From positions 1,604,603-1,668,602 of the forward strand of contig OZ245327.1 in NCBI GenBank assembly GCA_965225805.1: DNA of 64,000 nt. The letters run 5' to 3'. Each line of letters starts with the position of its first letter. Positions within the stretch are counted from its first letter, which is position 1. Under the pieces are notes generated by a model, which did no database searches, was not told where the DNA came from, and saw only the letters and a program-made list of their open reading frames with translations. Below, one piece after another: positions 15,405 through 63,331 of the stretch. The stretch comes from Longimicrobiales bacterium (lineage in GTDB: Bacteria; Gemmatimonadota; Gemmatimonadetes; Longimicrobiales; Gaopeijiaceae). Position numbers and translations under genes: made by a program.

Positions 15405-15620
15405 TGGTTTCCGGCCGTCACGGCCGCAAGCTCCCGCGCGCCACGGCTGCCACGATGATCGTGACGCAAACCGAAAGACGGCCAAGGATATACGGAACCG
15501 GCGGTGTGTCCGGATTGGAGGCGATTTCGTGTCCGCCTACCAACCGATGTCGGACGGACACCGGCGCTCTGGCCCCGGCGATGCGATTCCGGGAGCGGCA
15601 ACGCCGCTTGGTGAACGACG
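15405..15620 (+). repeat. non-coding module M2 (copy 1 of 3)
   Basis: GTCACGGCCGCAAGCTCCCGCGCGCCACGGC...GCAAACCGAAAGACGGCCAAGGATATACGGAACCGGCGGTGTGTCCGG...GATTTCGTGTCCGCC aligns with 20402..20600 and 60729..60900. Confidence 0.7.
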
Positions 15621-18479: not shown

Positions 18480-19640
18480 TCAGGTGCGGAGCCTCGGGCG
18501 GCTTTCCAGAGCCTTCCTGAGTTGTCCCGTGTCGGCCTGCTGGTAGCAGCGCAAAACCGTCTGGGCCTCCTTCCAGCCACCCAGCTCGCACAGCACCTTC
18601 AGCGGAAGGTCCATGAGGTCGGACGCGAATTTCCGCCTCAGCGAGTGCCAGCCGCGCCCGCGCTTGCGTCCCAGCCCCGCAAGGTCTTCGGCCCTGTTCC
18701 ACCAGTAGCGGACCGGCGACTTGCCCATGCACTTCGAGGCATCCCTGGATGCGGGCAACACCGGCGCGTCTCCGTTTCCGGGATTCCTGCGTTGCGCCTC
18801 TTCCAAGGCGGCGAGCGCCTCGGCGGTCACGGGCGTGCGGTGCTCGTATCCGCTCTTCTCGTGCTCGGCGCGCCACAGGATCGTCCTGTCCTCGAAGTCG
18901 ATGTCAGTCCACCTGAGGTGGCGGATGGCACCGATCCGGTGACCGGTCTCGTGAGCGAGCACGAGCGCGACGTGGAACCGCCAGTCCACCCGGCGCGACA
19001 CTCGTAGCATCGCGTCGTATTCCTCGTCGGAAAGGACGATCCGCGTCGGGTTCTTCTCCTTGGGCAGCTTGAGCCCTCGCAGCGGATTCGAGTCGAGCAG
19101 CAGACGGCCCTGCTCGTCCCTCGATTTGGAAGCCCAGTTGAGGACCGCGATCAGGAACTTCAGGTCGTTCTCGATCGTCCGATTCAACACCGGCTGGCGG
19201 CTCGGTCCGAGCCTGCCCGCGCGGCGTTCCCGGATGAACCGGTCCCAGTCCCGCTGCGAAAGCGTCTCGGGTCTTCGGTTTGGCCCGAGGAAGTCGAGGA
19301 ACATCCGCAACTGCATTCTGTCCCGCTGCTGAGTCTTCTCGGTCTTGGTTGGCGTCACCTCCTCGCCGTAGATTTCAAAAAGCGTTCCCAGAGTGAGCGG
19401 CTCCGGTTCGGCTTCCGCCTTGCCGTTCAGGTCCGGGCTTGCGAACCCGGCGGCGAACTCGTCCGCCTGCCGTTTGGCTCGGGTCCAGTCACGGTGACCC
19501 AAGGACCTCGTGAGCCTGCGCCCGTTCTCCCGCCACTCGATCTGGTACAAGCCGGTTTTCCGGTCGGGGAACACCCGGACCCGGTTCCGGCCCCATTCGC
19601 CAGCGCCGTAAGAGCGCCGACTTCGTTTCGTGCGTGCCAT
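18480..19640 (-). CDS. int: tyrosine recombinase / integrase (the only apparently intact copy of the family)
   Basis: MARTKRSRRSYGAGEWGRNRVRV...HVALVLAHETGHRIGAIRHLRW...GRGWHSLRRKFASDL...LGGWKEAQTVLRCYQ (R...HxxR...Y-type catalytic blocks). ATG at 19640 is preceded by GAGGAA and the 16-mer. Confidence 0.85.
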   Translation of the reverse strand: MARTKRSRRSYGAGEWGRNRVRVFPDRKTGLYQIEWRENGRRLTRSLGHRDWTRAKRQADEFAAGFASPDLNGKAEAEPEPLTLGTLFEIYGEEVTPTKTEKTQQRDRMQLRMFLDFLGPNRRPETLSQRDWDRFIRERRAGRLGPSRQPVLNRTIENDLKFLIAVLNWASKSRDEQGRLLLDSNPLRGLKLPKEKNPTRIVLSDEEYDAMLRVSRRVDWRFHVALVLAHETGHRIGAIRHLRWTDIDFEDRTILWRAEHEKSGYEHRTPVTAEALAALEEAQRRNPGNGDAPVLPASRDASKCMGKSPVRYWWNRAEDLAGLGRKRGRGWHSLRRKFASDLMDLPLKVLCELGGWKEAQTVLRCYQQADTGQLRKALESRPRLRT

Positions 19641-19671
19641 CTTTCGATTCCTCCGATTGATGGACTGCACG

Positions 19672-19687
19672 ATCTGCGCAACGGAAT
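19672..19687 (-). promoter_or_regulatory. conserved 16-mer GCAGATCGTGCAGTCC upstream of the integrase
   Basis: Plus strand reads GGACTGCACGATCTGC, 32 nt from ATG 19640. Confidence 0.4.
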
Positions 19688-20057
19688 CTCGCTGGACTCA
19701 GGCTGCTTGACCAGTGCGGCAACCGCGCCGTTCGCTTCTTGAGCCGCGCCCGAGCACTTCGCCGGGTTCTCTGGAAAGCGATGCAGGAGCGGCTGCCGGA
19801 AGCCGCTCAGCATCCACCGCTCTCCACCCTGCCGCCCGCGAATCCGGTCGTGCGGTCCACCGCAGATCGCCCGGATCTTGACCGCCGCTCGGCCGGGGCC
19901 GGTGGCGTACCGCGCGTGCACATCGACATCGGGGTGCATGTGCACGGAATCGTCGTGTCCATGTGCGCGGGCAGGAGCTACGTATGTCGCTGCCCACGTT
20001 GTGGTTACACCACGGCCGCACACACGGCGGTGCCGTTCCAGAGGGTGCGGCCGTGGC

Positions 20058-20175
20058 GGGAGCGACCCCGCCCTTCGGGTGCCTGGTACGGCACGGCGAC
20101 GGTCGGGATGTGCACGGCCATCCCAACCTCGCCTGGGGTCGCTCCCGGTCCATCAATCCCATGCGGGAAGGCCAA
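20058..20175 (+). repeat. structured repeat M1, copy 1
   Basis: GGGAGCGACCCC (20058) ... GGGGTCGCTCCC (20135) closes about 65 nt that contain the hairpins GGGATG-N8-CATCCC and GTGCC-N6-GGCAC. Followed by TCCATCAATCCCATGCGGGAAGGC. Confidence 0.8.
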
Positions 20176-20308
20176 ACGGCGAGCCGGAACGGGCGCGTCC
20201 CGGCCTTGGTCGGCGATGCCGGACAGCCCGACGGCCAAGTGGTCGGGCAACGGGTCCTCCAGCGCCTCGAAGCGACTCTCGACACCCTTCCGGGACGGAC
20301 TGTTGGCT

Positions 20309-20600
20309 GGGAGCGACCCCGCAGCGGAGGGGCGGATGGGGATGTACATCGCCATCCTGCCCGATGCCCATCGAGGCATGCCTCGATGGGGGGTCGCTCC
20401 CAGCCACGGCCCCGATGGCCGGATCGGCATCGCCGCTCCGGCGGCCGTGGCACAACCGCAAGCGCGCCAGCGACATACGGAACCGGCGGCGTGTACATCG
20501 CAGACGCGATTTCGTGTCCGGCGACCCCCGAAGCACCATGTACACTCGTGGATCGGCATCGGTACGGGCGCCCGGCGGTCAAAACGGGTCCCCCCGACAG
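20309..20600 (+). repeat. structured repeat M1 copy 2 (20309..20401) followed by module M2 copy 2
   Basis: GGGAGCGACCCC...GGGGTCGCTCCC with inner hairpin ATGCC-N6-GGCAT. The downstream sequence aligns with 15405..15620 and 60729..60900. Confidence 0.8.
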
Positions 20601-21401
20601 ACGGCTCGAATGCCACCACGGGGAGGACGTTGGAGGTAGAGACGCCATCGGGCTACGCCTTCGCCTCGGCGACAACCCTGTGGCGGACTCGGCCGCCGAT
20701 ACGCGGGCGGTGACGATGGGCGGTGCGGCGCACGGCCACGGGGAGAATTATAACCCAGTGTAGGACAGCGGTTTATGGATATAGTCGCTTGCTCGTGATC
20801 ACCCCGGCGATCACCCTTTGAGCACGGGATACCGGCATCCAATGGGCCGACGGAACTTCGCCGATTCGGTTCGGTTGTCCTGTGGTGTCTCGCGTCATGC
20901 CGTACGGTCTCCTGCGGGTTCGAGCGCTGAGCGCGTCTGGACCCATCCCGTTAGCGACGAGTGTCACTCACTTCCTATCGTCCAGCTCAGCAGCACCAGA
21001 AACAGCGACACGATAGCCCCCACAAGGGTGAACAACCATCTCTAGCCCGCGCTACGTGGCCCTTTGGGGGGTCGAAAGGGTGCGATCACCAGCCTCAGCG
21101 CCGATGTCGGATTCCGCGCAGCCGCCGATCACTACTGCGGCTCGGGCAAGGGCAGCGACGGCGATCATGTGACTTACACGGCCTGCGGACTTGGGGAATC
21201 CCATGGACCGGCGCCCAGACCGGACGCGCTCACCGTCGCCACCGCCGCGGCGCTGCTCGCCCAGCTCACCGCAGCCCCCACCATCGCGTTGCCGTTCTGG
21301 TCACGCACCTCGGCCGTGACGCCATACCGCAACAGACGGTCACGGTCAGCCAGAAGACCGGCGCAACCGGAGGCTGCGGACTGATACGCGAGAGATCATG
21401 C

Positions 21402-24400
21402 TCACCTTCTCGGCAGTCCCCGGATGACCTGGACTTGCGTACCCGACGCCATGGCCGCCGCAGATGTTGCGTCTCCGACAAACCAGTCACGCGCGATTGT
21501 TCGTACCTGGCCCGATGCACGATCAATGATCAACGCCGCCCGCCCGCCGGTGTCGCGGTCCAGGGTCGTCGAGCCCTCGGGGCCCATCAGCGTGATGCGG
21601 TCCAGGGCCTCGGACCATTCGGGCTCGAAGGGGATCGCGAACAGGAAACTGCCGCCCCCGTGGTCGAGTGCGTCCGGCGTGAAGCTGAACGAGAACAGGC
21701 GGCGCCCCTCCGCATCGAGGCCCTCGAGCCGGTAGGGACCGGGGGCCTCGGGGAGTTTCAGCCGCGCGTCATGTGCGAATGCGGGCTCCAGGCGCAGGCC
21801 CCCTTCGTGGACGCCGCCCCACAGCAGCAGGGTTTCCTGCATGGCCGCGCGCTGGGCGAAGCGGGCCTGGGCCGACGCAAGATCCAACCGATAGTCGAGA
21901 GCCTTGTTGAAGTTGGCGTCGCTGATCCAAGGCTGACGGAATCTCCAGTTGGGACATTCATCGGCCTGCATCACGTCAGAGTGTTTCTCAGGGCTAAGCA
22001 ACCGACCGAATCCCGTGTCGTCGCCGGCTATGAACCTGTGTCCCCAAGCTCCGATGGAACCATCCGGGTAGGGGAAATAGGCTGGATGATCCTCCGGGCC
22101 GTCGCAGCGGGCGTGCCAAAGACTCAGGTTGTGGCCGAGTTCGTGGGCAACGACGCGATAGAGTCCGCTGGGCTTGTCCCATATCCCTGAAATGGCGGTG
22201 TATCCGTACAGGTGGGCCCAGCCATGGGGCCCCCAGCCCGAGCCGTGGGGATAGAGGAAAACCCCATGGTAATATTCATTTGTCCCGCTGGCTTCCAGAT
22301 GCCTCAGCATATCAATCTCGCCAAGGAGCTGCAGATCACCGTTCACCATCGTGTCGGCGTACGTGAAATAGGGCTCCCGGAGCCTCACGTTCAGACCGCC
22401 AATCGGCAGCATCCCTCGGACACGACCCATCGTCCCGTAGGAGTCGGTACCGGCCATTTCACGCGTGACGTCCTCAACCACCGGATTGGTCTCCTGGTTG
22501 GCCTCCGTACTGTATAGCACGGGAACGATGGTCAGATTTAGGGGCGGGAGTTCCCGCACGTCAAGGGCGAGATGGCCCGACGCCGGAAAGCGGGTACGGC
22601 TTCCCGACTTCAAGGGCAGGACCCCGTCGGGATCCAACTCCACGACCATCTCGAGGCCGGGTTGCAGGACGTGTCCCGGAATCCTCGCGTTGAAGGAATG
22701 GCCGAGGCGGCCTTCCTCCACATCGAGGGGAATGCCCAGCGCGGGCGGCTCCAGGGAGGCGCTGTATACCTCCTGGCCACGGACCAAGAAGGTGGCTTGG
22801 CCCTCATGTCCGACGATGTAGCGTTGGTCGGCGGTTGCGAACACGCGGAGCAGCGCCTCACGGCCCGCGATGAGCGGAACGCCGCCGCTCAGGTCCTGGC
22901 TGGCCTGGGTCAGGTGGGCGGCCGGAACCGACAGGGCAACGGTCTCGGGGTTGGCCAGCACCAGAAGATCACCGGCCACGATCTCCCATCCCGAGCATTT
23001 CGGTCCCTCGGTATTCGATCCAGGGGCCTCGCACACGGTCGGCACCGGGCCGAAGGCAACCGAAACCCCCGTGCCGGAACCATCGAACGTCAGCGTGGCC
23101 TCCGTGCCCACCGTGGCGCCGGCCGCAAACGATGCGCCGGGGGACGATAGCGTACCTCCCCGCACGGAGAGGGGGATCGTCATCGCGAACGGGGTGCCCT
23201 CGGCCACGCTGAACCCCAGTGTCGCTGGGCCCGGCGACGTTGCGTCACCGTCCGTTCGGGTCACCTCCGCCGTCAGCGTAAACGGAGAGCCAGGGTTGTG
23301 CGCCAAATGGAGTTCTTTCAGGCTGGCAAGACCGGAGAACACCCCTTCGGGCAACGCGGTCAAGTCGTTCAAGCCCAGATTCAGCCATTTCAGGCTGGCG
23401 AGGCCGGAGAACACCCCTTCGGGCAAGGCGGTCAAGTCGTTGGCGCCCAAATCCAGCATACGCAGGCGGGACAGGTCGGCGAAGATGCCAACAGGCAACT
23501 CTGTGAGTCCGTTAGTGTCCAAACCGAGAGACGACAGCTTTGAGAGGCCGGAGAACACCCCCGCAGGCAACTCCGTGAGTCGATTCACAAATAACGGCAG
23601 GTCCTCCAGGTTTGAGAGGTCGGAAAACACTCCTTCGGGCAACGCGGTGAGTTCGTTGAGGCTCAACTGCAGCGATCGTAAGCGGGATAGGCCGGAGAAC
23701 ACCCCTTCGGGCAAGGCGGTCAAGTCGTTCCCGCCCAGATTCAGCCATTCCAGTGCGGCGAAGCCCAGGAAATCGCCTTCGCGTAAGACGGTGATGGGGT
23801 CATCCTCCCGTGCGCACCCCTGCCACTCCACCTTCGGAAAGCACAGGTCCAACCCGTGGATCGACGCCAAATGCCGGTCCTCGACCTCTGCGCAGTCGCC
23901 GAGGCCTGCCTGCTGGACGATCTCGTCTCCGACCTGCGGCGTCCGGTCGCACACGCCTTCCTCGATCGTCACCGCTGCGCTGGCAACGACGCCAAGCCCA
24001 TATCCAGCATCACTCCCAGGCGTGTCCAGGGTCAGCGTGAACACCTCGCGCACCGGCTCTATGTCGTCATCGTCATTGATGGCGATCTCGATCACCGCAG
24101 CACTTGCCCCTGCCGCGATCTCGACCGCGCCCCCGCCGCCGTCCGTGTAGTCGGACCCGTCCGCGTCCGAGGTCGCCGGGTCGCCATCTACCCCGAGCGT
24201 GTAGCGCACGCTGATCGCCGAATCCGGCACCGGGTCGACCGTCAGTGCCAGCGTGACCACACCGCCCTCTGGGGCCGACTCTGCACCGCTGTCCAGTGTC
24301 ACCATGGAACCCACCGACACCGTCACGGTCGCGGTGCCCGACACCGAGCCGGCCGTCGCCGTGATCGTCGCCGTCCCGTTTGCTGCGGCAGTTACCAGCC

Positions 24401-24725
24401 CGGAGTTACTCACCGTGGCCACCGCGGCGCTGCCGCTCGCCCAAGTTACGGAGGCGCTGGCCATCGCCTGGCCGTGTTGGTCGCGCACCTCGGCCCGGAG
24501 CTGTACGGTCTCCCCCAGGGCCGTGAGTTCTGCGGTCGCGGGGGTCACCATAACCGTCGTAGGCCGGGGGGGATCGGGAGGAGGCGCCGGCGGCTCCGTG
24601 GAGCCGTCCCCGCAGGCCGCTGCCCAAGCGACTGTTGCCATCGCTGATGTCAAGACGATGAAGAGCCGCTTACGGCTATTCCTGCCTCTCGCCAGGAAGG
24701 TGCTCACGAAGCGAGGCCGTTTCAA
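21402..24725 (-). CDS. large lipoprotein: Big_2 Ig-like + Calx-beta-like + LRR array + C-terminal metzincin-like zinc protease domain
   Basis: 1107 aa. TTG start after AAAGGAGGA. Lipobox WAAAC. VTPATAELTALGETVQLRAEVRDQHG (Big_2). LRR units L..L.L..N.LTALPEGVFSGL. HELGHNLSLWH (HExxHxxxxxH). Confidence 0.8.
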   Translation of the reverse strand: MKRPRFVSTFLARGRNSRKRLFIVLTSAMATVAWAAACGDGSTEPPAPPPDPPRPTTVMVTPATAELTALGETVQLRAEVRDQHGQAMASASVTWASGSAAVATVSNSGLVTAAANGTATITATAGSVSGTATVTVSVGSMVTLDSGAESAPEGGVVTLALTVDPVPDSAISVRYTLGVDGDPATSDADGSDYTDGGGGAVEIAAGASAAVIEIAINDDDDIEPVREVFTLTLDTPGSDAGYGLGVVASAAVTIEEGVCDRTPQVGDEIVQQAGLGDCAEVEDRHLASIHGLDLCFPKVEWQGCAREDDPITVLREGDFLGFAALEWLNLGGNDLTALPEGVFSGLSRLRSLQLSLNELTALPEGVFSDLSNLEDLPLFVNRLTELPAGVFSGLSKLSSLGLDTNGLTELPVGIFADLSRLRMLDLGANDLTALPEGVFSGLASLKWLNLGLNDLTALPEGVFSGLASLKELHLAHNPGSPFTLTAEVTRTDGDATSPGPATLGFSVAEGTPFAMTIPLSVRGGTLSSPGASFAAGATVGTEATLTFDGSGTGVSVAFGPVPTVCEAPGSNTEGPKCSGWEIVAGDLLVLANPETVALSVPAAHLTQASQDLSGGVPLIAGREALLRVFATADQRYIVGHEGQATFLVRGQEVYSASLEPPALGIPLDVEEGRLGHSFNARIPGHVLQPGLEMVVELDPDGVLPLKSGSRTRFPASGHLALDVRELPPLNLTIVPVLYSTEANQETNPVVEDVTREMAGTDSYGTMGRVRGMLPIGGLNVRLREPYFTYADTMVNGDLQLLGEIDMLRHLEASGTNEYYHGVFLYPHGSGWGPHGWAHLYGYTAISGIWDKPSGLYRVVAHELGHNLSLWHARCDGPEDHPAYFPYPDGSIGAWGHRFIAGDDTGFGRLLSPEKHSDVMQADECPNWRFRQPWISDANFNKALDYRLDLASAQARFAQRAAMQETLLLWGGVHEGGLRLEPAFAHDARLKLPEAPGPYRLEGLDAEGRRLFSFSFTPDALDHGGGSFLFAIPFEPEWSEALDRITLMGPEGSTTLDRDTGGRAALIIDRASGQVRTIARDWFVGDATSAAAMASGTQVQVIRGLPRR

Positions 24726-24956: not shown

Positions 24957-25832
24957 CTATTTTGTATGTATCTTTCTTCCGAAGCGGAGGTGGCATCCGA
25001 CATCTGCTTGCACGGCCTTGCCGGAGCCCTGTGGGGTTTTGAGGGGAGGCATTGGGACCGCTGCTTCACGGAGGGCAGAAACGCCGCCGCCAACGAAGCT
25101 CTTTGGAAGCCGGACGCGAATAGCTTCCCTACCGGGCTGGCGCCAGGACGGCCACCTGCCTGACCCATTGCGAGTGAGCTGGTCCGGGCAGCGCACCTCC
25201 GCCGCGTTCTGGGCCTTTGGCAGCGGCGCCTTGAGGTGCTTCTGGATGTGGCCGGGCTTCGGCAGCGCCGCCCGGATCGCCTCGCCCGCTGGGTTGTCGA
25301 CCCGGTAGCCCTGCGCGATCGCCCACTTCATCACCGTCCCGATCCGCTCCCGCACCCGCTTGGCCGTCGTGTGCTTCGCGCTCCAGATCGGCATCAGCAC
25401 GCCCATGACGTCGGCCGACGTGATCCGGTCCACCCGCTTCCCCCCGATCCTCGGATGCACGTACATGCGAAGCGTCGACGCCCACTGGGCCGCGTGCTTG
25501 GCGCTCCACGAGGTACGATGCATGGCGAAGACCTTCGCCGCCGCTCGCTCGAACGTCGGCACCGAGCGGCGGCGTGTCGCCCTCGGGTCGCCTCCCGCTC
25601 TGGCCACCTTGCGGTTGGCCAGCGCGGCGTCCCGCGCCTCGGCCAGCGTCACGAGGCGGACGGGACCGAGCCCCAGTTCCCGGCGCTTGCCGTGGATGAA
25701 CAGCCGCTGGATCCACTGCTTGTAGCCGGACGGCTTGACGCGGAGCACGAGGCCGTGCTCGTCCCAGTAGAGCCCCGGCTCGTGGACGCTTCGCACGAAG
25801 GCGGCGGTGAGTTTCCTGCCGTGTTTGCCCAT
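24957..25832 (-). pseudogene. P4-type (DUF4102 arm-binding) tyrosine integrase, N-terminal half only
   Basis: KLTAAFVRSVHEPGLYWDEHGLVLRVKPSGYKQWIQRLFIHGKRRELGLGP...AEARDAALANRKVARAGGDP...KHAAQWASTLRMYVHP. Family-like sequence stops near 25200. No catalytic domain follows. Confidence 0.65.
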
Positions 25833-30205: not shown

Positions 30206-32265
30206 GTGCGCCGTGGAAAGGCGCGCCTTCCTTGCGGGTGCAAATCCCGCCCGGCAACTGTCGCTCCAGCCGGTAGCAACCGGAGCGGCTCATGGAGGTA
30301 ACGACATGGGTTGAAGCACTTCGGTACGGGCCGCGCACGATACGCGACACCCTACACGGGCACGAAGCTGGAAACGGCGGAGACGGCCAAGGGAGGAGCT
30401 AAGTCGGAAGGCGGTTCAGCGACCACGCGGGCCGAAACGCGAGTGAACGCCGAGCAGGCCTCGAAACATCAAACGCGGGAGCCGACCCTCCGCAAGAAAG
30501 GGGAAGGCCGCCGACTGGCCGGGAAAAGAAGAGCGACGGGACAACCGGCTGGTTTCCGCCGGGGTAGTGGCGTCGGCACGTGTGGAAGATGGAGAGTGTG
30601 GCAACACGGGAAGCCCCGTCGGTGCCGTGGCACGCGGCAACCGGAACCCCGCGAGGGGCAGGCCGGGCCGGCAGGGTGGCGGATGGGCCCGTAGTACCGG
30701 GGACGCGGGGTAATGCCCGCCGAGGGAAGGGGCCCTGAGTTGGGAGCGGTACGGAAAGGAGGCAGGGACATGGCCACTGGCGCGAGCCTAACAGGGTCGG
30801 TGAGCGTTCGGAAACTCCAGACCGTGCTACATGCGAAAGCGAAGGAAGAACCCGGACAGCGCTTTCACGCCCTTGTCGACAAGGTATGGCGGGAGGACTT
30901 CCTGCTGGCGGCATGGGGGATGGTGCGGCGCAACGGCGGAGCGGCTGGAGTGGATGGTGAGACGGTCGCGGACATCGGGGCGCACGGAGTGGAGCGCTGG
31001 GTCGGGGAACTGTCGCGGGACCTGAGGGAGGGCACCTACAAGCCGAGTCCGGTGCGGCAGGTGCTCATTCCGAAGAAGCAGCCGGGGAAGTTCCGTCCCT
31101 GGGCATCCCCTGCCTGAGGGACCGGGTTGCGCAGACGTCGGCAATGCTGGTGCTGTCGCCGATCTTCGAGGCGGACCTGGAGCCGGAGCAGTACGGATAC
31201 CGGCCGGGACGAAGCGCCAAGGACGCGGTCAGGCGGATCCACCGCCTGCTGCACACGGGCCGCAACGAGGTAGTCGATGCGGACCTCTCGAACTATTTCG
31301 GCGAGATACCGCACACCGAGTTGATGAAGAGCATCGCACGGCGCGTGAGCGACGGGCGGATGCTTGGACTCATCAAGGCGTGGCTGGAGATGCCGGTGGT
31401 CGAGGAGGACGGTGAAGGCGGCACGCGCCGCACGAACCGGGCGCGGAAGGAGAGAAAGGGGACTCCGCAAGGGGCTCCGATCTCGCCGCTGTTGAGCAAC
31501 ATCTACATGCGGCGGTTCATCCTTGGCTGGAAGGCGCTGGGTCATGCCCGGCGCTTCGGTGCGGAGATCGTGAACTATGCGGATGACTTCTGCGTGCTCG
31601 GAAGGGCCCCGGCGGCGGAGATGCTGGCGGCGGTCAACCGGCTCATGGAACGACTGAAGCTACCGGTCAACGCCCGGAAAACCCGATGCCTCCGATGCCC
31701 CGAGGAGCCTCTCGAGTTCCTTGGATATCGCATCGGCTGGAACTATCGTCGGACGGATGCGAGCCGGTACATCGGTACCCGGCCGAGCAAGGCGAGCGTT
31801 CAAAGCATACGCCGCAGGATCCGCGCGCAAACGGCCCCACGGTACGAGGGCTGTCCAGCAGAGGAGGTTGTAGGGCGCCTCAATCGGATGGTATCCGGAT
31901 GGGCAAACTACTTCACACTCGGCCAGGTCAGTCCGGCCTACGCGGCTGTGGATACGTACGCGGCCCAGCGGTTGCGACAGTGGTTCTGCCGGAAGCACAA
32001 GGTGAAATCAGGAAAATACGTGCGATTTTCCCACTGGTGGCTGTGGGAGGAATGCGGCCTCACGCGCCTTGCGCTGACGACACGACACCTTCCGTGGGCG
32101 AAGGCATGATCCCGACTGAGAGCCGGATGCGGGAAACCCGCACGTCCGGTTCGATGAGCAGGGGGTGGAAACGGACCTATGGGAGCCGGACTTGGCACCG
32201 CGCGAAAGCAAGCGGATCAAATACACACCGGACCCTAAGGGCACCGCGCCACCCCCTGACTCCAC
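30206..32265 (+). mobile_element. group II intron (about 2.06 kb)
   Basis: 5' GTGCG at 30206. Domain V GAGCCGGATGCGGGAAACCCGCACGTCCGGTTC at 32117..32149. Ends ...TCCAC. Boundaries are fixed by comparison with the intron-less paralogous site at 42431..42445. Carries an RT/maturase ORF. Confidence 0.8.
30770..32109 (+). pseudogene. group II intron reverse transcriptase/maturase, frameshifted near 31097
   Basis: MATGASL...GVDGETV...KKQPGKFRP then a stop. One extra C would restore ...[29 protein letters not shown], which joins ORF 31144..32109 (NYADDFCVL = YADD motif; maturase X domain). Confidence 0.8.
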
Positions 32266-34739: not shown

Positions 34740-34821
34740 CCTGTGGTTCGTTTGCATTTGCCCTCTGTGGACGGGTGGGATGATCGTCGCACTCCTCTTG
34801 GGACGCGGGGACGGCCGTCGC

Positions 34822-34930
34822 GTTTGCCTTCCCGCAAGGGATCCTTGGTTCGAGAGCGACGCCTGGGGGGTGAAAGAACACCTGGCCCCGAGCCCGTGCC
34901 GGGCCCTCGAACTGGGGGACTCCCCACCAT
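34822..34930 (-). repeat. structured repeat M1, degenerate copy 3
   Basis: The reverse complement GGGGAGTCCCCCAGTTCGAGGGCCCGGCACGGGCTCGGGGCCAGG...GGCGTCGCTCTCGAACCAAGGATCCCTTGCGGGAAGGC aligns with 53883..53998. Confidence 0.6.
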
Positions 34931-35815
34931 TTGTCAACGCTTCTGGAAGCGGGGCTGTAACCCCGCGTCCAAGGAGGAGATGAGGCGGCATGACTCTCTG
35001 CAGGTTGAGCACGTCCGGGTCATTAGCATGGCGCAAGCGAGCGCGAGCAGATGGCCACGGCCGCGCCGGAGGCACCCACCGCACGGGGAGCCGGTCCGTG
35101 TGAACGTTTTCCGGCTTCCACCGGGACGTCACAGTGACGAAAATTTTCGTAGAGCATGATAGCCGACGATTCGCCGGATGTCAACGAGGGTCTTCGTAGG
35201 AGGCGCTCAGGTCCCGCGATGGTCGGTTTTTTGACTACCATGATATGCGACGGCGGCGGCGGGGCGGATGTCGTCGGCCCGACCCCAACCGGGCTTATAT
35301 GAAGGCCGCCCAACGGGCTGGCCCTCAGTTTGACTCGTCTTTTTACCCCGGAGTATCCTGGCTAGTTCGTCATCTTCGATGGAGCACGGCCTTCCCGGCC
35401 TGACGCGGCAGGGCGCGATCGCGGAGCGGAACCCCGAACTGGTTGATCCAGCGGATCACATCTCCGCAGGTCGTCTCAGAAAGATGGATGGCGCGAGCCG
35501 TCTCGTAGACGGACAGTCCGCCGCATGAGAGAAGGCGAGGGAGGTCCGAGGGATGGATGCAAGCAAAGACGCCCCACAGGTGCCCGCGCTCGGAGGCGGA
35601 AGGATCGGCCGAACGGAAGATCCGCTCTAGCGCGAGGCCGTCAGGGCGACCGGCGACGCCGGCGAGGTGAGTGCCTGCAAGCCCGGCAAAGAACTTGTAG
35701 GATTCGCCCGCCCGCGCGGTTGGCGGGGCCTTGGCGCGGGGTTGTCGAACCACGCCAGCGGAAGGGGCACCTGGGGGAGGCGCCGCTCGGGGTCGTAGGC
35801 GAGCCGACGCAAGGG

Positions 35816-42671: not shown

Positions 42672-44089
42672 CCTGTACCCTTGTCGTCGGGGTGTGTACC
42701 AAGTTCGTTCGTAGCGATGGCGACCGGTCCGGGAGTAACCAAAAGGCCCCTGTGCCTGCGAGCACCTCGAATGGAGCAGTGCCCCGGCCGGGAGCCGCGG
42801 TGGATGCCCAGTGGGGAGTATGCGCCTTCGAGCGCCAGTACAGGGACCGGCTGGCATCGCGGCACCGTCCGTCCGCTCGATTCCATCCCGTTCATCTTCG
42901 CGAGGAGAGCTTATGGCAAGAGATTCCGCCTGCTTCGCCGGAGTCGACTGGGCCACGGAGACGCATCACGTCTGCGTGGTCGGCGATGACGGATCGAAGC
43001 AGGAAGAGCGTACCTTCCGGCACAGCGGGAAGGAGCTGGCCAGGATGGCCGATTGGATCGCCGCCAGGTGCGGTGGCGATGCCTCCGGGATCCCCATCGC
43101 CATCGAGGTCCCGCACGGACCGGTGGTCGAGAGCCTGATGGACCGGGGTTTCGCGGTCTACTCGATCAACCCGAAGCAGCTCGATCGCTTCCGCGACCGC
43201 TTCTCCCCGGCCGGTGCCAAGGACGACAGCCGCGATGCGCGCGTGCTCGCCGACGCGCTTCGCACCGACAGCCACTGCTTCCGACGCATCGATCCCCTCG
43301 CCCCGGTCGTCATCGAACTGCGGGAGTGGTCGCGCATCGCCGAAGAGCTGACCCGGGAGCGCACACGCCTCTCCAACCGCGTGCGTGACCAGCTCTGGCG
43401 CTACTACCCGCAGATCCTCGAGGCCACCGAGAATGTGGCCCAGCCCTGGGTCCTCGAGCTCTGGGCACGGGCACCCACGCCGGCCAAGGCCCGCCGGATC
43501 CAGCGCCGCACCCTGGAGGCCCTTCTCAAACGGCACAGGATCCGCCGGATCACGGCCTACGAGTTGCTCGATCTCCTGCGTGTGCCGGCGATTGCCGTCG
43601 CACCGGGAACCACCGAGGCCGCCGTAGCCCACATCAGGAGCGCCACCGAGCGCCTCGGCCTGGTGCACCGGCAACTCGCCGAGGCCAAGCGCGAAATCGG
43701 CCGCCTCCTCGGGTCTCTGTCCACCCCCGAAGAGACCACCTCTGAAGAGCAGAGCCCGGCGAGCAGCGCGACGCGACGATCCTCTCCTCCCTGCCCGGAG
43801 TCGGTCAGACCGTCCTCGCCGCGCTGCTCGCCGAGGCACCGCAACTGGTGGCCAAACGCGACTACCTGGCCCTGCGGTGCCTGTGCGGAGTCGCGCCGGT
43901 GACCAGACGATCCGGCAAGTCAATGATCGTCGTCCGTCGGCTTGCCGCGCACCCGCGCCTCCGTGACGCGGTTTACCACTGGGCTCGTGTCGCCGTCCAA
44001 CATGACGCCACGAGCAAGAAGAAGTACGCCGTCCTTCGCGCACGCGGTCACACTCACGGCCGCGCCCTGCGCTCCGTCGCTGACCGGCT
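42672..44089 (+). mobile_element. IS110-family element (copy a, about 1.42 kb) inserted in the integrase gene
   Basis: Removing 42672..44089 restores CACCCGGTTCCGGCC|CCATTCGCC, the reverse complement of the intact GGCGAATGGGGCCGGAACCGGGTG seen in other integrase copies. Boundaries can slide by 2 nt (CC). Confidence 0.8.
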
Positions 44090-52097: not shown

Positions 52098-53348
52098 ATG
52101 GTAGAACCCAAGGCTTGGTTCGCCGGCGTGGACTGGGCGTCGGAAGCGCATCACGTCTGCGTAGTCGGCGGCGACGGCTCGAAGCGGGCGGAACGCATCT
52201 TCCGCCACGGAGGCGCGGGGCTGGCGGAGATGGCCGAGTGGATCGCCGCCAAGTCCGGAGGGTCCGCCCCGGACATTCCGGTGGCGATCGAAGTCCCGCA
52301 CGGGCCGGTCGTCGAGAGCCTCATGGACCGGGGGTTCGCGGTCTACGCGATAAACCCGAAGCAGCTCGACCGGTTCCGCGACCGCTTCTCGCCGGCCGGC
52401 GCCAAGGACGACAGCCTCGATGCCCGCGTCCTCGCCGACGCGCTGAGGACCGATCTTCGCCACTTCCGGAGGATCGACCCGGTCGACCCGACCGTCATCG
52501 AACTCAGGGCATGGTCGCGGATCGCCGAGGAGCTCACCCGGGACCGCGTTCGCCTGTCGAACCGCGTGCGAGAGCAGCTGTGGCGCTACTACCCGCAGAT
52601 CCTCGAAGCGGTCGGAAGCGTGGTCGAGCCCTGGTTCCTCGACCTCTGGGCCAAGGTTCCGACGCCCGCGAAGGCCCGGCGGGTCCAGCGCCGGACCCTC
52701 GAGAGCCTGCTCAAGCGCCACAGGATCCGGCGGATCACGGCCGACCAACTCGTCGAGATCCTCCGCGCCCCGGCCATCGCCGTCGCACCCGGTACCACCG
52801 AGGCCGCGGTGGCCCACATCCGGAGCGCTTCCGAACGCCTCCGCCTCATACAGCGCCAACTCGCCGACGCCAAGCGGAAGATCGCCCGCCTGATCGACGT
52901 CTTGGCCGGCAGCGAGGACTCCGGCTCCGGCCAACCCGGCGGGCAGCGCGACGTGACGGTCCTCTCCTCCCTGTCCGGAGTCGGCCAGACCGTCCTCGCC
53001 ACGCTGCTCGCCGAGGCCCCCCAAGCGCTGGCGCGCCGGGACTACAAGGCGCTGCGGTGCATGTGCGGCGTAGCGCCGGTCACACGGCGATCCGGCAAGT
53101 ACAAGCTCGTCGTGCGCCGCATGGCCGCCCACGCCCGCCTTCGCGACGCAGTGTACCACTGGGCACGGGTCGCGGTCCAGCTCGATCCCGTCAGCAAGGC
53201 CAAGTACGCCGCCCTTCGCGGGCGCGGCCACGGCCATGCGCGCGCCTTGCGTTCCGTCGCGGACCGCCTGCTCGCAGTCGCCTGCGCCATGCTCAGAACC
53301 CAGACCTGCTACCGGCCTCCACAGCCAGCGGAGGATCATGCGGCCTGA
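52098..53348 (+). CDS. IS110-family transposase
   Basis: 416 aa: FAGVDWASEAHHVCVV (DEDD N-terminus), INPKQLDRFRDRFSPAGAKDD, LSSLSGVGQTVLATLLAE, CGVAPVTRRSGK. Confidence 0.85.
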   Translation: MVEPKAWFAGVDWASEAHHVCVVGGDGSKRAERIFRHGGAGLAEMAEWIAAKSGGSAPDIPVAIEVPHGPVVESLMDRGFAVYAINPKQLDRFRDRFSPAGAKDDSLDARVLADALRTDLRHFRRIDPVDPTVIELRAWSRIAEELTRDRVRLSNRVREQLWRYYPQILEAVGSVVEPWFLDLWAKVPTPAKARRVQRRTLESLLKRHRIRRITADQLVEILRAPAIAVAPGTTEAAVAHIRSASERLRLIQRQLADAKRKIARLIDVLAGSEDSGSGQPGGQRDVTVLSSLSGVGQTVLATLLAEAPQALARRDYKALRCMCGVAPVTRRSGKYKLVVRRMAAHARLRDAVYHWARVAVQLDPVSKAKYAALRGRGHGHARALRSVADRLLAVACAMLRTQTCYRPPQPAEDHAA

Positions 53349-53432
53349 TCTCCCCCCTGGACGCGGGGTTACAGGCCCGCTTCAGGAACCGTTGACTAAT
53401 GGTGGGGAGTCCCACAACGGCAACGGCGCGTC

Positions 53433-53700
53433 ATGAGCGCTGGACGCGCCGTGTGGGTGAAGGTCCGCGTGAGCGACGCGGAGCGTGTGCCGAGTGGCAC
53501 GCCAAGGCGCGCTCGGTGGGCTTGACGCTGTCGGATCTGGTCGTCGGCGGCCACAAGGCGGCTGCCGAGGCGGTCGAGCTCGTCGCCCACCTGGTCGTCA
53601 TCGGGAGAGCGCGCTCCGGGCTCGCCGACCAGCCGGGGCTGATGCAACGCGCCGACACATGGCGGACGGTTCGCCTCGCGGGAGTCCTCTACCAATGATT
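53433..53700 (+). pseudogene. mobC remnant (2-nt insertion plus internal deletion of about 30 codons)
   Basis: MSAGRAVWVKVRVSDAERV then a frameshift (GAGCGTGTGCCGAG versus GAGCGTGCCGAG in copy 1). The next frame reads AEWHAKARSVGLTLSDLVV-GGHKAAAEAVELVAHLVVI. Confidence 0.75.
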
Positions 53701-53882
53701 TGCGCACCTCTGGCGCCGTGGGTCATGGCCGTATACGCCCGCGAAATCGACAAGGGGTGCCGATGCGCACCCCGGCGCCCAAGACGTGCGCACCGGCGGG
53801 GCGACGGAAGCTGCTGTGCGCAAAGGTCTTGCGCCTCGCTGTCCAGGGCGGCCGGGGCCGCAGGGCTCACTCGGACGGGGCT

Positions 53883-53998
53883 GGGAGCGACCCCCCAGTC
53901 CGAGGGCCTGGTACGGGTTCGGGGCCGGGCGCGTTTGCGCACCCCTGCCCCCGTCCCCTGGGGTCGCTCCCGATCCATCAATCCCTGTGGGAAGGCTA
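53883..53998 (+). repeat. structured repeat M1, copy 4 (about 270 nt upstream of dcm)
   Basis: GGGAGCGACCCC (53883)...CCTGGTACGG...GGGGTCGCTCCC (53960) GATCCATCAATCCCTGTGGGAAGGC. Confidence 0.8.
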
Positions 53999-54268
53999 TC
54001 GGGCAACCGCGGAAGACAGCGTTCTTCGGACTTCGCGGTGTTTGCGGGGGCGGCCGCCATTGGGGCTCCAGCCTTGCTCGGCTCGAAACCCGAAGAATCA
54101 ACCGAAGGCCGTTCGCAGCCGAGTCCGGTGACGGCAACATTCGAGCTTGACCCAAGTCCCGTCTCCAGTTCCCTTTGGATCGATAGGCTTCCGCGATCTT
54201 CCACACACTAGCGCTGTAGCCGCGTCGTCCATGAATCCACCCACGATCCCCACACGAACGGCGAAGCC

Positions 54269-60367: not shown

Positions 60368-60608
60368 TGTTCGTGACGCCGGCAGACGGGTAATGTTCGC
60401 TCATGCGCGAGGAACGGGAAATTACTCAGACCGGCGTTCACCAGCCAACCGAGCCACCGCGTACGGGGTTGCGTTGGAGTCGTCTCCGCCCGTCGCTCAT
60501 GGTCTCCGCGCCTCGGCATGTGCACCTTGCTGGCATCCGGTGCTTACCTGCGCCGGCACAGCTGGCACACAGTCGGGTCGCGTGTGGGTAAGGGGGGCTC
60601 ACAAGCAA

Positions 60609-60900
60609 AACGGCCTTCCCGCACGGGATTGCTGGCCGGGAGCGACCCCCGAAGGAGGGTGGGATGGGAGTGCACATCCCAACCGTCGCGGTGCCGTATG
60701 AGGCATGCCGAACAGGTGGGTCGCTCCCGTCCACGGCCGCAAGCGCCCGCGCGTCACGGCCGCCCCGGCGGCTTCGGCACAAACGAAAGTACGCCAGCAA
60801 CTTGCGGCATCGGCGGTGTGTCCCGTCCGGACGCGGTTCTCGTGCACAACGACCCCGATGTCTGACGGACACCTCTGGATCGGCAACGGCACCCGCCCAT
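60609..60900. repeat. structured repeat M1 copy 5 (60609..60728) plus module M2 copy 3
   Basis: CGGCCTTCCCGCACGGGATTGCTGGCCGGGAGCGACCCC...GGGATG-N8-CATCCC...GTGCC-N6-GGCAT...GGGTCGCTCCC. In reverse complement it aligns with copies 1 and 4. The downstream part aligns with 15405.. and 20402.. Confidence 0.8.
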
Positions 60901-60906
60901 GGGCGG

Positions 60907-61895
60907 TCAAATCCCGCCCCCGGAGAAGCGGCTCGAAACCCATACCGAATAGCCGTGGATCATTCCTCCGGGGAGGCCCGATCGGAGCAGAGCCCTCATC
61001 TCAACGAGGCGGTGAAGGCAGCCGTTGAGACCGCCCAATTCCTTGACCGCCGCGTCGTCCATTCCCCGGATGGCATTCTCGACGCGCGCAATCTCGCGCC
61101 GGACGGCTGCGATGGTCTTGGGCTGCTGGTTGGGCTCTTGGGCGGTGGCGGCGCCGACCCAGTTTCCCAGGATCGTCCGTGCGCGTTCGAGTTCCCTCCG
61201 ACCGCCTGCGACCCTGGCGACCTCGACCGACAGGCTCTGCTCCCTCAGCGCTTCCCATAGCCCATGGTGCCGATCCCGCCACGAGCGGAGCGCGGTCGAG
61301 GTGTCGTAGCCGGGATCGGCGGGCACGAACACGGCGCGGCTGGAGTCCAGCGCCACGGGCATCCCGCGGGGAAGTACCGCCGCGCGCCCCCGGCGGCGCC
61401 CCGGTAGATCCGGACGGGCAGGAGCGAGCGACTGATGTCGAGTACCTCGAACGCGGCGACCTTCTCCGCCTCGGTGGGCAGCCAGGGCAGGCCGGTGTGC
61501 TCGATCACGTAGTCGAAGGAGAGCAGGCGGCGCATGGCCACCTCGGGCGAGGTGATCCTCCGGTGGCGCACACCTTCGGCACCCAGTGCGCGGTAGATGC
61601 CGCGCGCGCAGATCCGGCAGACCTTCAGGTCTCCGACCATCTCCTCGGCGGCCAGCCTTCGGTCCCTCAGGCCCTGCACGAACCGGAGCGCCGTGAAGCG
61701 GCTGACCCCGAGCCACGCAGAGAACTGCTTGCGGGTGAACACGCCTCCGTGCAGGCTCGCCAAGGCGATCCACTCGGCGCGGCGGCCCGTCAAGCCGAAC
61801 GGCTCCAGCGCCTTCTCGCGCCCCTGTAGATGGTCGATCACCAAGGCCGCCGTTGGTCGAGGGCTTTGCTGTACATGAGGGTTCCCAATTCCCAC
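60907..61895 (-). pseudogene. winged-helix (replication-relaxation-like?) protein, frameshifted in a C-run near 61368
   Basis: Frame 1 reads ...GVFTRKQFSAWLGVSRFTALRFVQGLRDRRLAAEE...LPVRIYRG...RYFP. Frame 2 continues RGMPVALDSSRAVFVPADPGYDTSTALRSWRDRHHGLWEAL... The family call is tentative. Confidence 0.4.
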
Positions 61896-62147: not shown

Positions 62148-62164
62148 ATCAAGAGAGGAATCGA

Positions 62165-63331
62165 ATGATGGCACGCACGAAACGAAGTCGGCGCTCCTAC
62201 GGCGCTGGCGAATGGGGCCGGAACCGGGTCCGGGTGTTTCCGGATGCCAAGACCGGCATTTTCCAGATCGAGTGGCGAGAGAACGGGCGCAGGCTCACCC
62301 GGTCCCTCAAACACCGCGACTGGTCGCGCGCGAAGCGGCAAGCGGACGAGTTCGCCGCGGGCTTCGCGGGGCCGGGCCTGAACGGCGAGGCCGAAGCCGA
62401 GCCCGAGCCGCTCAAGCTGGGATCGCTTTTTGACATCTACGGCGAAGAGGTGACGCCCACGAAGGGGAGACGGACGCGCCAGCGCGACTTGGTCGCGACC
62501 AGGATGTTCCTCCGCTTCTTCGGACGGGACCGAAGACCCGAAACACTGTCGCAGCGCGACTGGGATCGGTTCATCCGGGAACGGCGCGCGGGCAGGGCCG
62601 GACGCTCGGGCAAGCCCGTAGGCAACCGGACGATCGAATGGGACCTGACGTTCCTGATGACGGTGCTCAACTGGGCCGCAAGGTCAAGGGACGAACACGG
62701 ACGGCTGCTCCTCGACTCCAACCCGCTCAAGGGCCTCAGAAAGCCCAAGGAGAAGAATCCCAACCGGGTCGTCCTCACCGAGGACGAATACTAGGCGCTG
62801 CTCGGGGTTTCCCGGCAGGTCGGCTGGCGGTTCCATGTCGCGCTCGTGCTCGCGCACGAGACCGGGCACCGGATCGGTGCCATCCGCGAGCTCCGTTGGG
62901 ATGACATCGACATCGAGGGCCGCGAGGTCCGGTGGCGCGCGGAGCACGAGAAGACCGGCTACGAACACGTCACGCCCCTGACCGCCGAGGGGGTCGCCGC
63001 CCTGGAGGAGGAACGAAGCAGGAGCGAAGGAACCAAGAATGGCCCGGTGCTGCCGTCGCCGAGGGATGCCACGCAGTGCATGAGCCGCGTTGCCGCCCAC
63101 AAGTGGTGGAAGAAGGCGGAGACCCTCGCGGGACTGGAGCCGAGGCGGGGACGGGGCTGGCACTCGCTCCGTCGCAAGTTCGCTTCCGATCTCATGGACC
63201 TGCCGCTCAAGGTGCTTTGCGAGCTTGGCGGCTGGAAGAAGGCCCAGACGGTGCTGCGCTGCTACCAGCAACCCGACGCGGTACAACTCAGGAAGGCTCT
63301 GGACAACCGCCGCCGCAACGGTCGGGCCTGA
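62165..63331 (+). pseudogene. island integrase with a single in-frame TAG (62792..62794)
   Basis: MMARTKRSRRSYGAGEWGRNRVRV...VVLTEDEY*ALLGVSRQVGWRFHVALVLAHETGHRIGAIRELRW...GWHSLRRKFASDL. Both ORFs (61853..62794 and 62846..63331) are in the same frame. Confidence 0.8.

Follow-up and report, generated by a model that had tools for sequence, protein, structure and literature searches.

Background

The closest described counterparts of the element reported here are integron attC sites, repetitive extragenic palindromes (REPs), plasmid single-strand origins, the sib site of phage lambda and the bridge RNAs of the IS110 family of insertion sequences. Integron attC sites are targeted by the IS1111-attC group, and REP sequences are landing sites for other IS110-family members. 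In the RSF1010 origin, ssiA and ssiB lie on opposite strands of a large inverted repeat. Here we describe M1, a structured repeat in a 64,000-nt stretch of the genome of a Longimicrobiales bacterium (assembly GCA_965225805.1, contig OZ245327.1, positions 1,604,603 to 1,668,602; hereafter the window). M1 forms the folded head of a larger unit that accompanies tyrosine integrase genes in mobilizable defense islands.

M1 had previously been noticed from the letters of the window alone, as five copies of a stem-closed repeat with compensatory changes. We have followed up this sequence-only reading in the window, in the genome from which it comes (4.52 Mb, 66.9% G+C) and in 80 integrase loci of other metagenome-assembled genomes (MAGs).

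Results

M1 folds as a four-way junction with covarying helices

Predicted folds give M1 the form of a four-way junction, in which an outer closing stem of 12-16 bp holds a short hairpin, a hairpin of 5-7 bp and a long interrupted hairpin. This topology is constant in all copies from this genome and the 80 loci despite a mean column identity of 64%, and the sequences of the helices differ. Fold z-scores against dinucleotide shuffles range from -1.2 to -8.7. Variants of the closing stem are compensated on both arms (GGTAGC/GCTACC, GCTAGC/GCTAGC, GAGAGAC/GTCTCTC and GAGGGAC/GTCCCTC).

A covariance model, R1, was built from ten copies and gave 58 matches in the window and loci; 57 distinct copies were analyzed. 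With an alignment fitted to R1, which biases the result upward, standard pairs occupied 92.5% of cells (79.7% in shuffles, 34-53% in slid controls), double-sided changes were present in 27 of the 35 modeled pairs (15.7 in shuffles, 10-15 in slid controls), and the covariation score was 0.323 (0.114 in shuffles, about 0.04 in slid controls). In the closing stem, 96% of cells are paired and changes are compensated. Model-free folds of each sequence likewise gave one topology with differing helix sequences. The covariation first noticed in the second hairpin is real, though a minor share of the total, and the view that M1 is a selected structure rather than a set of random repeats is supported by pairing and covariation across the 57 distinct copies, which come from many genomes.

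M1 was rejected as a member of a known RNA family. Scanning the whole window with Rfam 15 at the gathering threshold returned only a tRNA and parts of group II introns, and a permissive scan of 19650-20960 returned only a sub-threshold S15-Halobacteria match (25.6 bits against a cut-off of 49), which falls on the H hairpin described below.

One strand of M1 is selected for folding

The orientation in which M1 was first written proved not to be the folding strand. Each copy was folded allowing Watson-Crick pairs alone, and single mismatches with a pair on either side were counted. In the original orientation, helix mismatches were mostly A.C, C.U and C.C. On the reverse complement, hereafter the folded strand, the M1 core contained 20 G.U mismatches (13 distinct contexts) against 4 A.C, 21 G.A against 1 C.U, and 35 G.G (23 distinct contexts) against 1 C.C. 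In 43 of 56 copies the folded strand also exceeded its complement in stability, by 3.9 kcal/mol (p = 1.5e-7). A count of G.U against A.C on the model-fitted alignment was uninformative (65 vs 61); that alignment forces the subtypes onto one model, and per-sequence folds were used instead.

Selection maintains the foldability of M1 as a single strand, on one particular strand. Because the mismatches are one-sided, they point to single-strand folding and not to a symmetric cruciform or a purely double-stranded protein site. Of the original suggestion of RNA or cruciform DNA, a folded single strand, whether RNA or single-stranded DNA, stands, and the symmetric cruciform is disfavored.

M1 is the 5' domain of a unit of ~330 nt

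M1 is the 5' domain of a non-coding module of ~330 nt. Along the folded strand the order is a small hairpin, the four-way junction with stem GGAGCGACC/GGUCGCUCC, the H hairpin, a GCAAC box and further hairpins. The small hairpin (UCCC-GCAN-GGGA) reads 5'-GCCUUCCC-GCAN-GGGAUUG-...-stem; it is the conserved tail of the sequence-only reading, which in that orientation appears as AATCCC-NTGC-GGGAAGGC located 3' of the stem in four copies. The common architecture described earlier was also recovered, with four of the five copies carrying the stem GGGAGCGACCCC...GGGGTCGCTCCC or a one-base variant around ~65-70 nt; the stem of copy 5 has a single mismatch relative to this pattern. Copies and coordinates were correct, and the conserved unit proved to be ~330 nt rather than ~120 nt long.

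In almost all copies, whichever the subtype, the H hairpin (CCACGGCC...GGCCGUGG) occurs downstream of M1. Beyond it come a GCAAC/GCAAG box, another hairpin, a GUGCACA...UGUGCAC hairpin whose loop is CGACCCCGAUGUC, and then GGAUCGGCA. M1 lies directly upstream of 83 of the 89 3' halves, and the only clean unit without M1 is an H-box-hairpin module directly after the mob module (15418..15565, plus strand; nhmmer 61 bits). Covariation is weaker in the 3' half, with 77% of cells paired vs 72% in shuffles and a score of 0.224 vs 0.157; in its GUGCACA hairpin, 6 of 7 pairs show double changes. Two arms of the 3' half, GUGYACAU and GUGCACA, are both able to pair with UGUGCAC (A8 columns about 117-125, 143-149 and 168-174; window 19905-19960 region). 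Only the first arm pairs in some copies and only the second in others, and this competition for one 3' arm may constitute alternative pairing.

Unit boundaries are sharp, and the flanks differ greatly between copies. M1 occurs in two subtypes, and many copies are decayed or truncated. Flank listings showed neither terminal inverted repeats nor target duplications at unit ends, and filled and empty sites that form a clean pair were not found, neither search being exhaustive. No T-runs follow the tail hairpin. The copies had been called non-coding, which agrees with our finding that none lies within an open reading frame (ORF) passing a codon-position G+C filter.

Copies in the window and genome

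All five copies of the sequence-only reading were located. A profile of these five found 13 places in the genome with nhmmer (E < 1e-8), and R1 found 11. Copy 1, comprising tail hairpin and four-way junction, lies at 20046..20179 with stem arms at 20058-20069 and 20135-20146 (R1 150.8 bits; fold z-score -5.0). Its folded strand is the minus strand, directed at an integrase gene. The 3' half of this unit (19845..20045, minus; aligned with 64 other units) contains the H hairpin (CCACGGCC...GGCCGTGG), the GCAAC box and the GTGCACA...TGTGCAC hairpin. Copy 2 is the inverted partner of copy 1 (20278..20414, folded strand plus; R1 71.9 bits; fold z-score -8.7), and its 3' half (20415..20614, plus) is followed by a homology break near 20760. 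Together with flanks, the pair forms an imperfect palindrome of ~500 nt at 19981-20479. The spacer between the two units (20180..20277; ~105 nt between folded-strand 5' ends) is conserved in sequence with genome loci at 702 kb and 2262 kb.

Copy 3 (34819..34931, plus) had been described as degenerate, and indeed the 5' arm of its stem is decayed; nhmmer detected it at 77.6 bits and R1 gave no match. It adjoins an IS110 remnant and has a flank in common with 53322-53416. Copy 4 belongs to subtype A (53870..54003, folded strand minus; R1 64.5 bits) and is accompanied by its 3' half at 53670..53869 (minus). Copy 5 (60606..60741, folded strand plus; R1 132 bits) is followed by a 3' half at 60742..60941 (plus), which terminates at the stop codon of a gene on the opposite strand, gene X.

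The unit keeps fixed positions beside integrase genes and gene X

In the window, related mobilizable islands are piled up at a tRNA-Ala gene. They contain genes for a MobA/VirD2-like relaxase and MobC/NikA, alpA and many fragments of the integrase gene int1, and their defense cargo includes an OLD nuclease, a McrC-like nuclease, Vsr and HEC-07-like proteins. The positions of the unit beside integrase genes and gene X are fixed, and the module is restricted to these islands: M1 copies were found solely in island contexts and none between core genes.

The int1 gene next to copy 1 (18483..19670, minus; probable ATG at 19640) encodes a tyrosine integrase of 396 aa (Pfam Phage_integrase, 3.7e-16) and is codirectional with and downstream of unit 1. 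A paralogue with one in-frame TAG lies downstream of unit 5 and gene X (62156..63316, plus; tblastn 76%). Int1 matches number 22 in this genome and reach 39 in relatives. The N-terminus of the protein is of the arm type, and its only domain match is the generic Phage_integrase; it did not reach the cut-off of any integron integrase or Xer model, the best NCBIfam score being 46.8 bits against a cut-off of 220. The likely attachment (att) core is located 3' of the integrase stop codon, outside M1.

Context was scored for 84 units, most of them from loci chosen through int1. In 20 units int1 is directly next and in the same direction, with 168-371 nt between the M1 3' end and the start codon (modes near 230 and 316), and in 14 it follows in the same direction 0.9-1.5 kb further on. 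Another position is taken by 19 units, which end 2-32 nt inside or beside the stop codon of an antisense gene X that is divergent from int1. Five units lie downstream of, and in the same direction as, a P4-like integrase gene, int2. An integrase lies within 3 kb of 73 of the 84 units, though most loci were int1-selected. In genome G087, which was sampled through M1, 13 of 19 regions contain int1 or gene X, and five "orphans" adjoin int2.

A divergent partner is present in only about 10 of 72 copies, always at 104-108 nt. In loci L043, L106 and L108, two or three units have the same orientation with one or two genes between them; inverted arrangements are equally common. Upstream of several units, a co-directional small outer-membrane-like gene ends ~75 nt before the unit, and its transcript would therefore carry the unit in the folding orientation. 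Two candidate roles were set aside. An alpA leader was rejected, since the distal copy of an inverted pair and alpA occupy opposite strands, and an origin of transfer (oriT) is not favored, as a separate short inverted repeat adjoins mobC in other loci.

Gene X is represented in this genome by a single frameshifted remnant (60922..61841, minus; tblastn 77-89% in two frames). The family (311 aa, >709 unnamed homologues; also L018:1753-2688) has an N-terminal winged helix-turn-helix (wHTH), and the gene is, with few exceptions, convergent on the M1 unit and divergent from int1. An AlphaFold2 model with a mean confidence score (pLDDT) of 76.8 matched known structures in Foldseek only at the N-terminal wHTH. 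Beyond that domain, searches of Pfam, NCBIfam, PHROGs, PADLOC, PDB sequences, PDB and BFVD structures (Foldseek) and plasmids (tblastn) returned nothing that bears on function.

Int2 is a protein of about 406 aa with Arm-DNA-bind_3, Phage_int_M and Phage_integrase domains, and M1 units lie 47-1025 nt downstream of its gene in the same direction (L100, L101, L103, L110 and L111, all in genome G087). A truncated member is found in the window at 24957-25832. Among the 80 loci, homology around int1 usually extends 0-50 nt upstream of the start codon and 30-120 nt past the stop codon (window 19679-19694 and equivalents). The upstream neighbor is alternatively the end of the mob module, a divergent mobC, an M1 unit or gene X, and int1 therefore behaves as a shuffled module.

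IS110-family elements land on the M1 stem

An IS110-family element interrupts the M1 stem at GGGTCGCT^ in three loci (L013:721-734, L022:215-228 and L072:4384-4397). Its end reads TGTCTCTTCCATTC, ~250 nt of non-coding sequence precede the transposase gene, and the DEDD-type transposase of 333 aa begins MSNILRTVGIDISKD. The genome locus at 454 kb loses homology at the corresponding point of the partner arm, beyond which lies an ordinary beta-propeller lipoprotein gene. M1 was rejected as a part of IS110 or its bridge RNA, because the element interrupts the stem in these loci and most copies adjoin tyrosine integrases.

Three int1 paralogues carry a different IS110-family element (1.4-1.7 kb) at one and the same 5' coding position, which corresponds to window 19594 (elements at window 42673-44084 and at genome 2263057-2264744 and 3287369-3289056). 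This position appears to be another site-specific target of IS110 in the islands.

Distribution

R1 detected M1 in 16 of 19 Candidatus Palauibacter genomes (Longimicrobiales, Gemmatimonadota), with 0-54 copies each and more than 250 hits in the genus as a whole. This genus probably includes sponge symbionts; names such as Ca. P. irciniicola suggest a sponge association of the host lineage. In a 151-genome sample of the phylum, M1 was present in 3 of 82 Gemmatimonadota genera, namely Candidatus Palauibacter and two others, one of the three being in another family. Scores in the other genera equal those in this genome, which suggests that the islands have spread horizontally. PLSDB plasmids contained no M1.

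A metagenome scan with the stem pattern returned >120 places, of which only about 14 contigs held true M1 by R1 (40-152 bits), the others being unrelated hairpins. A widespread superfamily with the stem GGAGCGACCC...GGGTCGCTCC was rejected: soil and sediment matches scored 25-30 bits, had unrelated interiors and flanks, and their lengths were piled at the lower limit of the search pattern. Outside its locus, M1 has homologues in the genus, in two other genera and in several contigs from metagenomes.

Copy numbers of M1 and int1 covary across the 19 genus genomes. The exceptions, G006 and G018 (4 int1 and no M1 in the latter), are natural controls for islands without M1. An origin of M1 as a host non-coding RNA gene serving as attachment site was rejected, since G006 and G008 have no copy. 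Short int1 contigs at four loci (L015, L028 and L031, from JAPPHB01 contigs, and L055) are binned as Gammaproteobacteria with coverage of 750-2000x in the contig names; these could be mis-binned multi-copy island DNA or a case of island transfer.

Cargo and other residents of the islands

A HEC-07 relative, a PADLOC candidate defense protein, is cargo between two M1 units in L034:668-2350, L077:577-2355, L043 and L046 (E down to 2e-106). The cargo beside the M1 pair of the window is a 1107-aa protein (21402-24725, minus) with leucine-rich-repeat and Ig-like domains and 72-nt (24-aa) repeats, resembling eukaryotic repeat proteins. The group II intron at 30710 has copies of 99.4-99.9% identity at genome 699900-701483 and other places, seven in all including that of the window, and this identity indicates recent activity.

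Discussion

We tentatively favor the hypothesis that the unit is a cis-acting structured RNA, a leader or insulator that buffers integrase expression, and recognize that this reading may well prove wrong. It is based on the constant topology, the covariation, the one-sided mismatches, the fixed position and direction, the co-occurrence with int1 and the non-coding status. The unit would act in cis within transcripts along the folded strand, which would either be directed toward int1 or extend from the gene of a P4-like integrase or of cargo. In this setting it would stop, stabilize or process read-through transcripts, and the expression of the integrase, and hence excision, would be buffered from transcription of the cargo. 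Where gene X lies between unit and integrase, the transcript would additionally be antisense to gene X.

Several observations weigh against a cis-acting RNA. No sigma-70-like promoter or intrinsic terminator was found in 19600-21000, and no promoter-like conserved block lies upstream of the unit. The fitting of the alignment to R1 favors the covariation. The strand bias is unable to separate RNA from single-stranded DNA, because G-containing mismatches are also the most stable in DNA; it is moreover peculiar to M1, the 3' half having 26 G.U against 25 A.C and a complement that folds better. Thirty-five of the 84 units have none of the int1, gene X or int2 neighbors listed above. In inverted pairs, the distal copy is directed away from the integrase and antisense to alpA. 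Finally, G006 has 20 int1 and no M1, from which it follows that the integrase does not require M1.

It is possible, though doubtful, that the unit is instead a site that folds as single-stranded DNA, either an sso/ssi priming origin (single-strand origin or initiation site) or an integrase recombination site, the displaced strand folding in rolling-circle replication or conjugative transfer. The MobA/VirD2-like relaxase and MobC/NikA genes of the islands would suit a priming origin, but no primase or replication initiator was identified, and gene X matches only a wHTH. Inverted pairs would give each strand one functional copy, the arrangement of ssiA and ssiB in the RSF1010 origin, and strand-specific folding is expected here as well, with G.G, G.A and G.T among the most stable DNA mismatches. 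The lack of promoter and terminator in 19600-21000 also fits. As for a recombination site, units lie at the borders between cargo and integrase, sometimes several in the same orientation with one or two genes between, but a length of 330 nt is large for such a site and the likely att core follows the integrase stop codon instead of lying in M1. The closing stem is conserved in sequence, as expected where a protein recognizes it, and is targeted by an IS110-family element, yet it is perfectly paired, lacks the extrahelical bases that set strand choice in attC and has no GTTRRRY core. Int1, with its arm-type N-terminus, is below the integron-integrase and Xer cut-offs.

A selfish or neutral palindromic repeat, similar to a REP or a miniature inverted-repeat transposable element (MITE), might hitch-hike with the islands and owe its complementarity to hairpin-templated repair or template switching. 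We consider this unlikely. Template switching should treat both strands alike, but the mismatches are strongly one-sided. The unit is a discrete module with sharp ends and very different flanks, as a selfish element would be, but its ends showed neither terminal inverted repeats nor target duplications in the flank listings and the genome has no REP-associated tyrosine transposase (RAYT, a Y1 transposase). Presence and absence are both seen (15418-15565 without M1, broken copies, and G006 with 20 int1 and no M1), there are two subtypes with many decayed or truncated copies, and an IS110-family element uses M1 as a landing site; yet positions relative to int1 and gene X are constant within a few nucleotides across genera, and copies occur only in island contexts, none between core genes.

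The tail hairpin and M1 (~135 nt) would make an improbable free-standing small RNA gene, transcribed from the spacer in inverted pairs and acting in trans, for example with the gene X protein or integrase. The conserved spacer of ~105 nt could hold divergent promoters, but no promoter or terminator motifs were found and a divergent partner accompanies only about 10 of 72 copies. Confinement of the bias to M1, with the 3' half preferring the other strand, fits convergent transcripts that end back to back; M1 is, on the other hand, almost never without the 3' half (83/89). Gene X, which encodes a protein of a DNA- or RNA-binding type, is a conserved neighbor of the unit.

More improbable still is that the unit is the partner of the integrases in module exchange, either as a folded single-stranded DNA recombination site on an integron-like, non-IntI platform, or as a structured RNA that chooses or regulates recombination partners via the integrase or gene X protein. 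Such a role would explain the location of units at borders of cargo and backbone, the breakpoints and IS110 insertion at one point of the stem, and the spread of the integrase to 20-40 copies per genome with different defense cargo.

That a short conserved peptide is encoded here, or that the copies derive from a decayed gene, as three differences at 9-nt spacing between two copies had led the sequence-only reading to caution and as long ORFs crossing the region on both strands might suggest, is scarcely credible and was rejected: the best frame is open in at most 37 of 71 units with no conserved ORF, single-base indels are frequent between copies, the changes are compensatory across helices, and the long ORFs fail the codon-position G+C filter, open frames of such length being expected at 67-72% G+C.

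If the unit is functional, whether as the cis-acting RNA that we favor or otherwise, it is a large and strongly covarying nucleic-acid structure, absent from Rfam, that is tied to the control or exchange of integrase and cargo modules in mobile defense islands. The host belongs to an uncultured lineage of symbionts, where the islands have proliferated to dozens per genome. M1 connects tyrosine-integrase islands, a 311-aa winged-helix family with >700 members, and the IS110-family elements that land on its stem, and its covariance model marks the borders of island modules in Gemmatimonadota assemblies. Even if M1 were no more than a selfish palindrome, the one-sidedness of its mismatches would call for an explanation.

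Comparison with known systems

For every known kind compared, the defining features that could be tested are absent from the unit, there being no IntI, core sites, extrahelical bases, RAYT, U-tract or Rfam match. Integron attC sites are similar in that structure is conserved over sequence, a sequence-conserved stem closes a variable and sometimes branched interior, folding is strand-specific, and M1 alone is of similar size (about 90-100 nt). Both also lie beside a tyrosine recombinase and between cargo genes, and both are targets of the IS110/IS1111 family. Unlike attC, M1 has no R''/R' core sites (RYYYAAC ... GTTRRRY), its stem GGGAGCGACCCC/GGGGTCGCTCCC containing no GTTRRRY in any copy and no extrahelical bases. 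The neighboring recombinase is no IntI, M1 makes up only the head of a longer unit (330 nt), and copies often form inverted pairs.

M1 resembles REPs, their composite forms (bacterial interspersed mosaic elements, BIMEs) and ERIC sequences as a multi-copy imperfect palindrome in non-coding DNA. Inverted pairs with a conserved linker recall BIMEs, IS110-family elements land on both, and REPs and BIMEs are thought to act in RNA as 3'-end stabilizers or terminators. REPs are, however, single hairpins of 20-40 nt that occur in hundreds of copies between core genes and are linked to RAYT, whereas M1 is a four-way junction in a 330-nt unit with 0-54 copies (11 here), found in mobile islands only; the RAYT domain PF01797 had no match in this genome, with positive controls. 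An intrinsic terminator differs again, as 19600-21000 contains no G+C-rich hairpin with a U-run. The sso and ssi sites of plasmids (ssoA/ssoU; RSF1010 ssiA/ssiB) are likewise highly folded, orientation-specific non-coding DNA of 100-300 nt in mobilizable elements, but no cognate primase or Rep protein was identified for the M1 unit.

Like the IS110 bridge RNA, M1 is a structured non-coding region tied to a mobile-element recombinase, and copies 3 and 4 lie downstream of IS110 transposase genes. It differs in being a target of IS110 insertion and not a part of the element; most copies are far from any IS110, and their partners are tyrosine integrases. The predicted role of the M1 unit recalls that of lambda sib, a cis-acting RNA structure beside an integrase gene that couples integrase expression to the source of the transcript. 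The two differ in form and place: sib is a single RNase III hairpin located 3' of int, across attP, whereas the M1 unit is a large multi-helix module that lies mostly 5' of int1 and 3' of int2.

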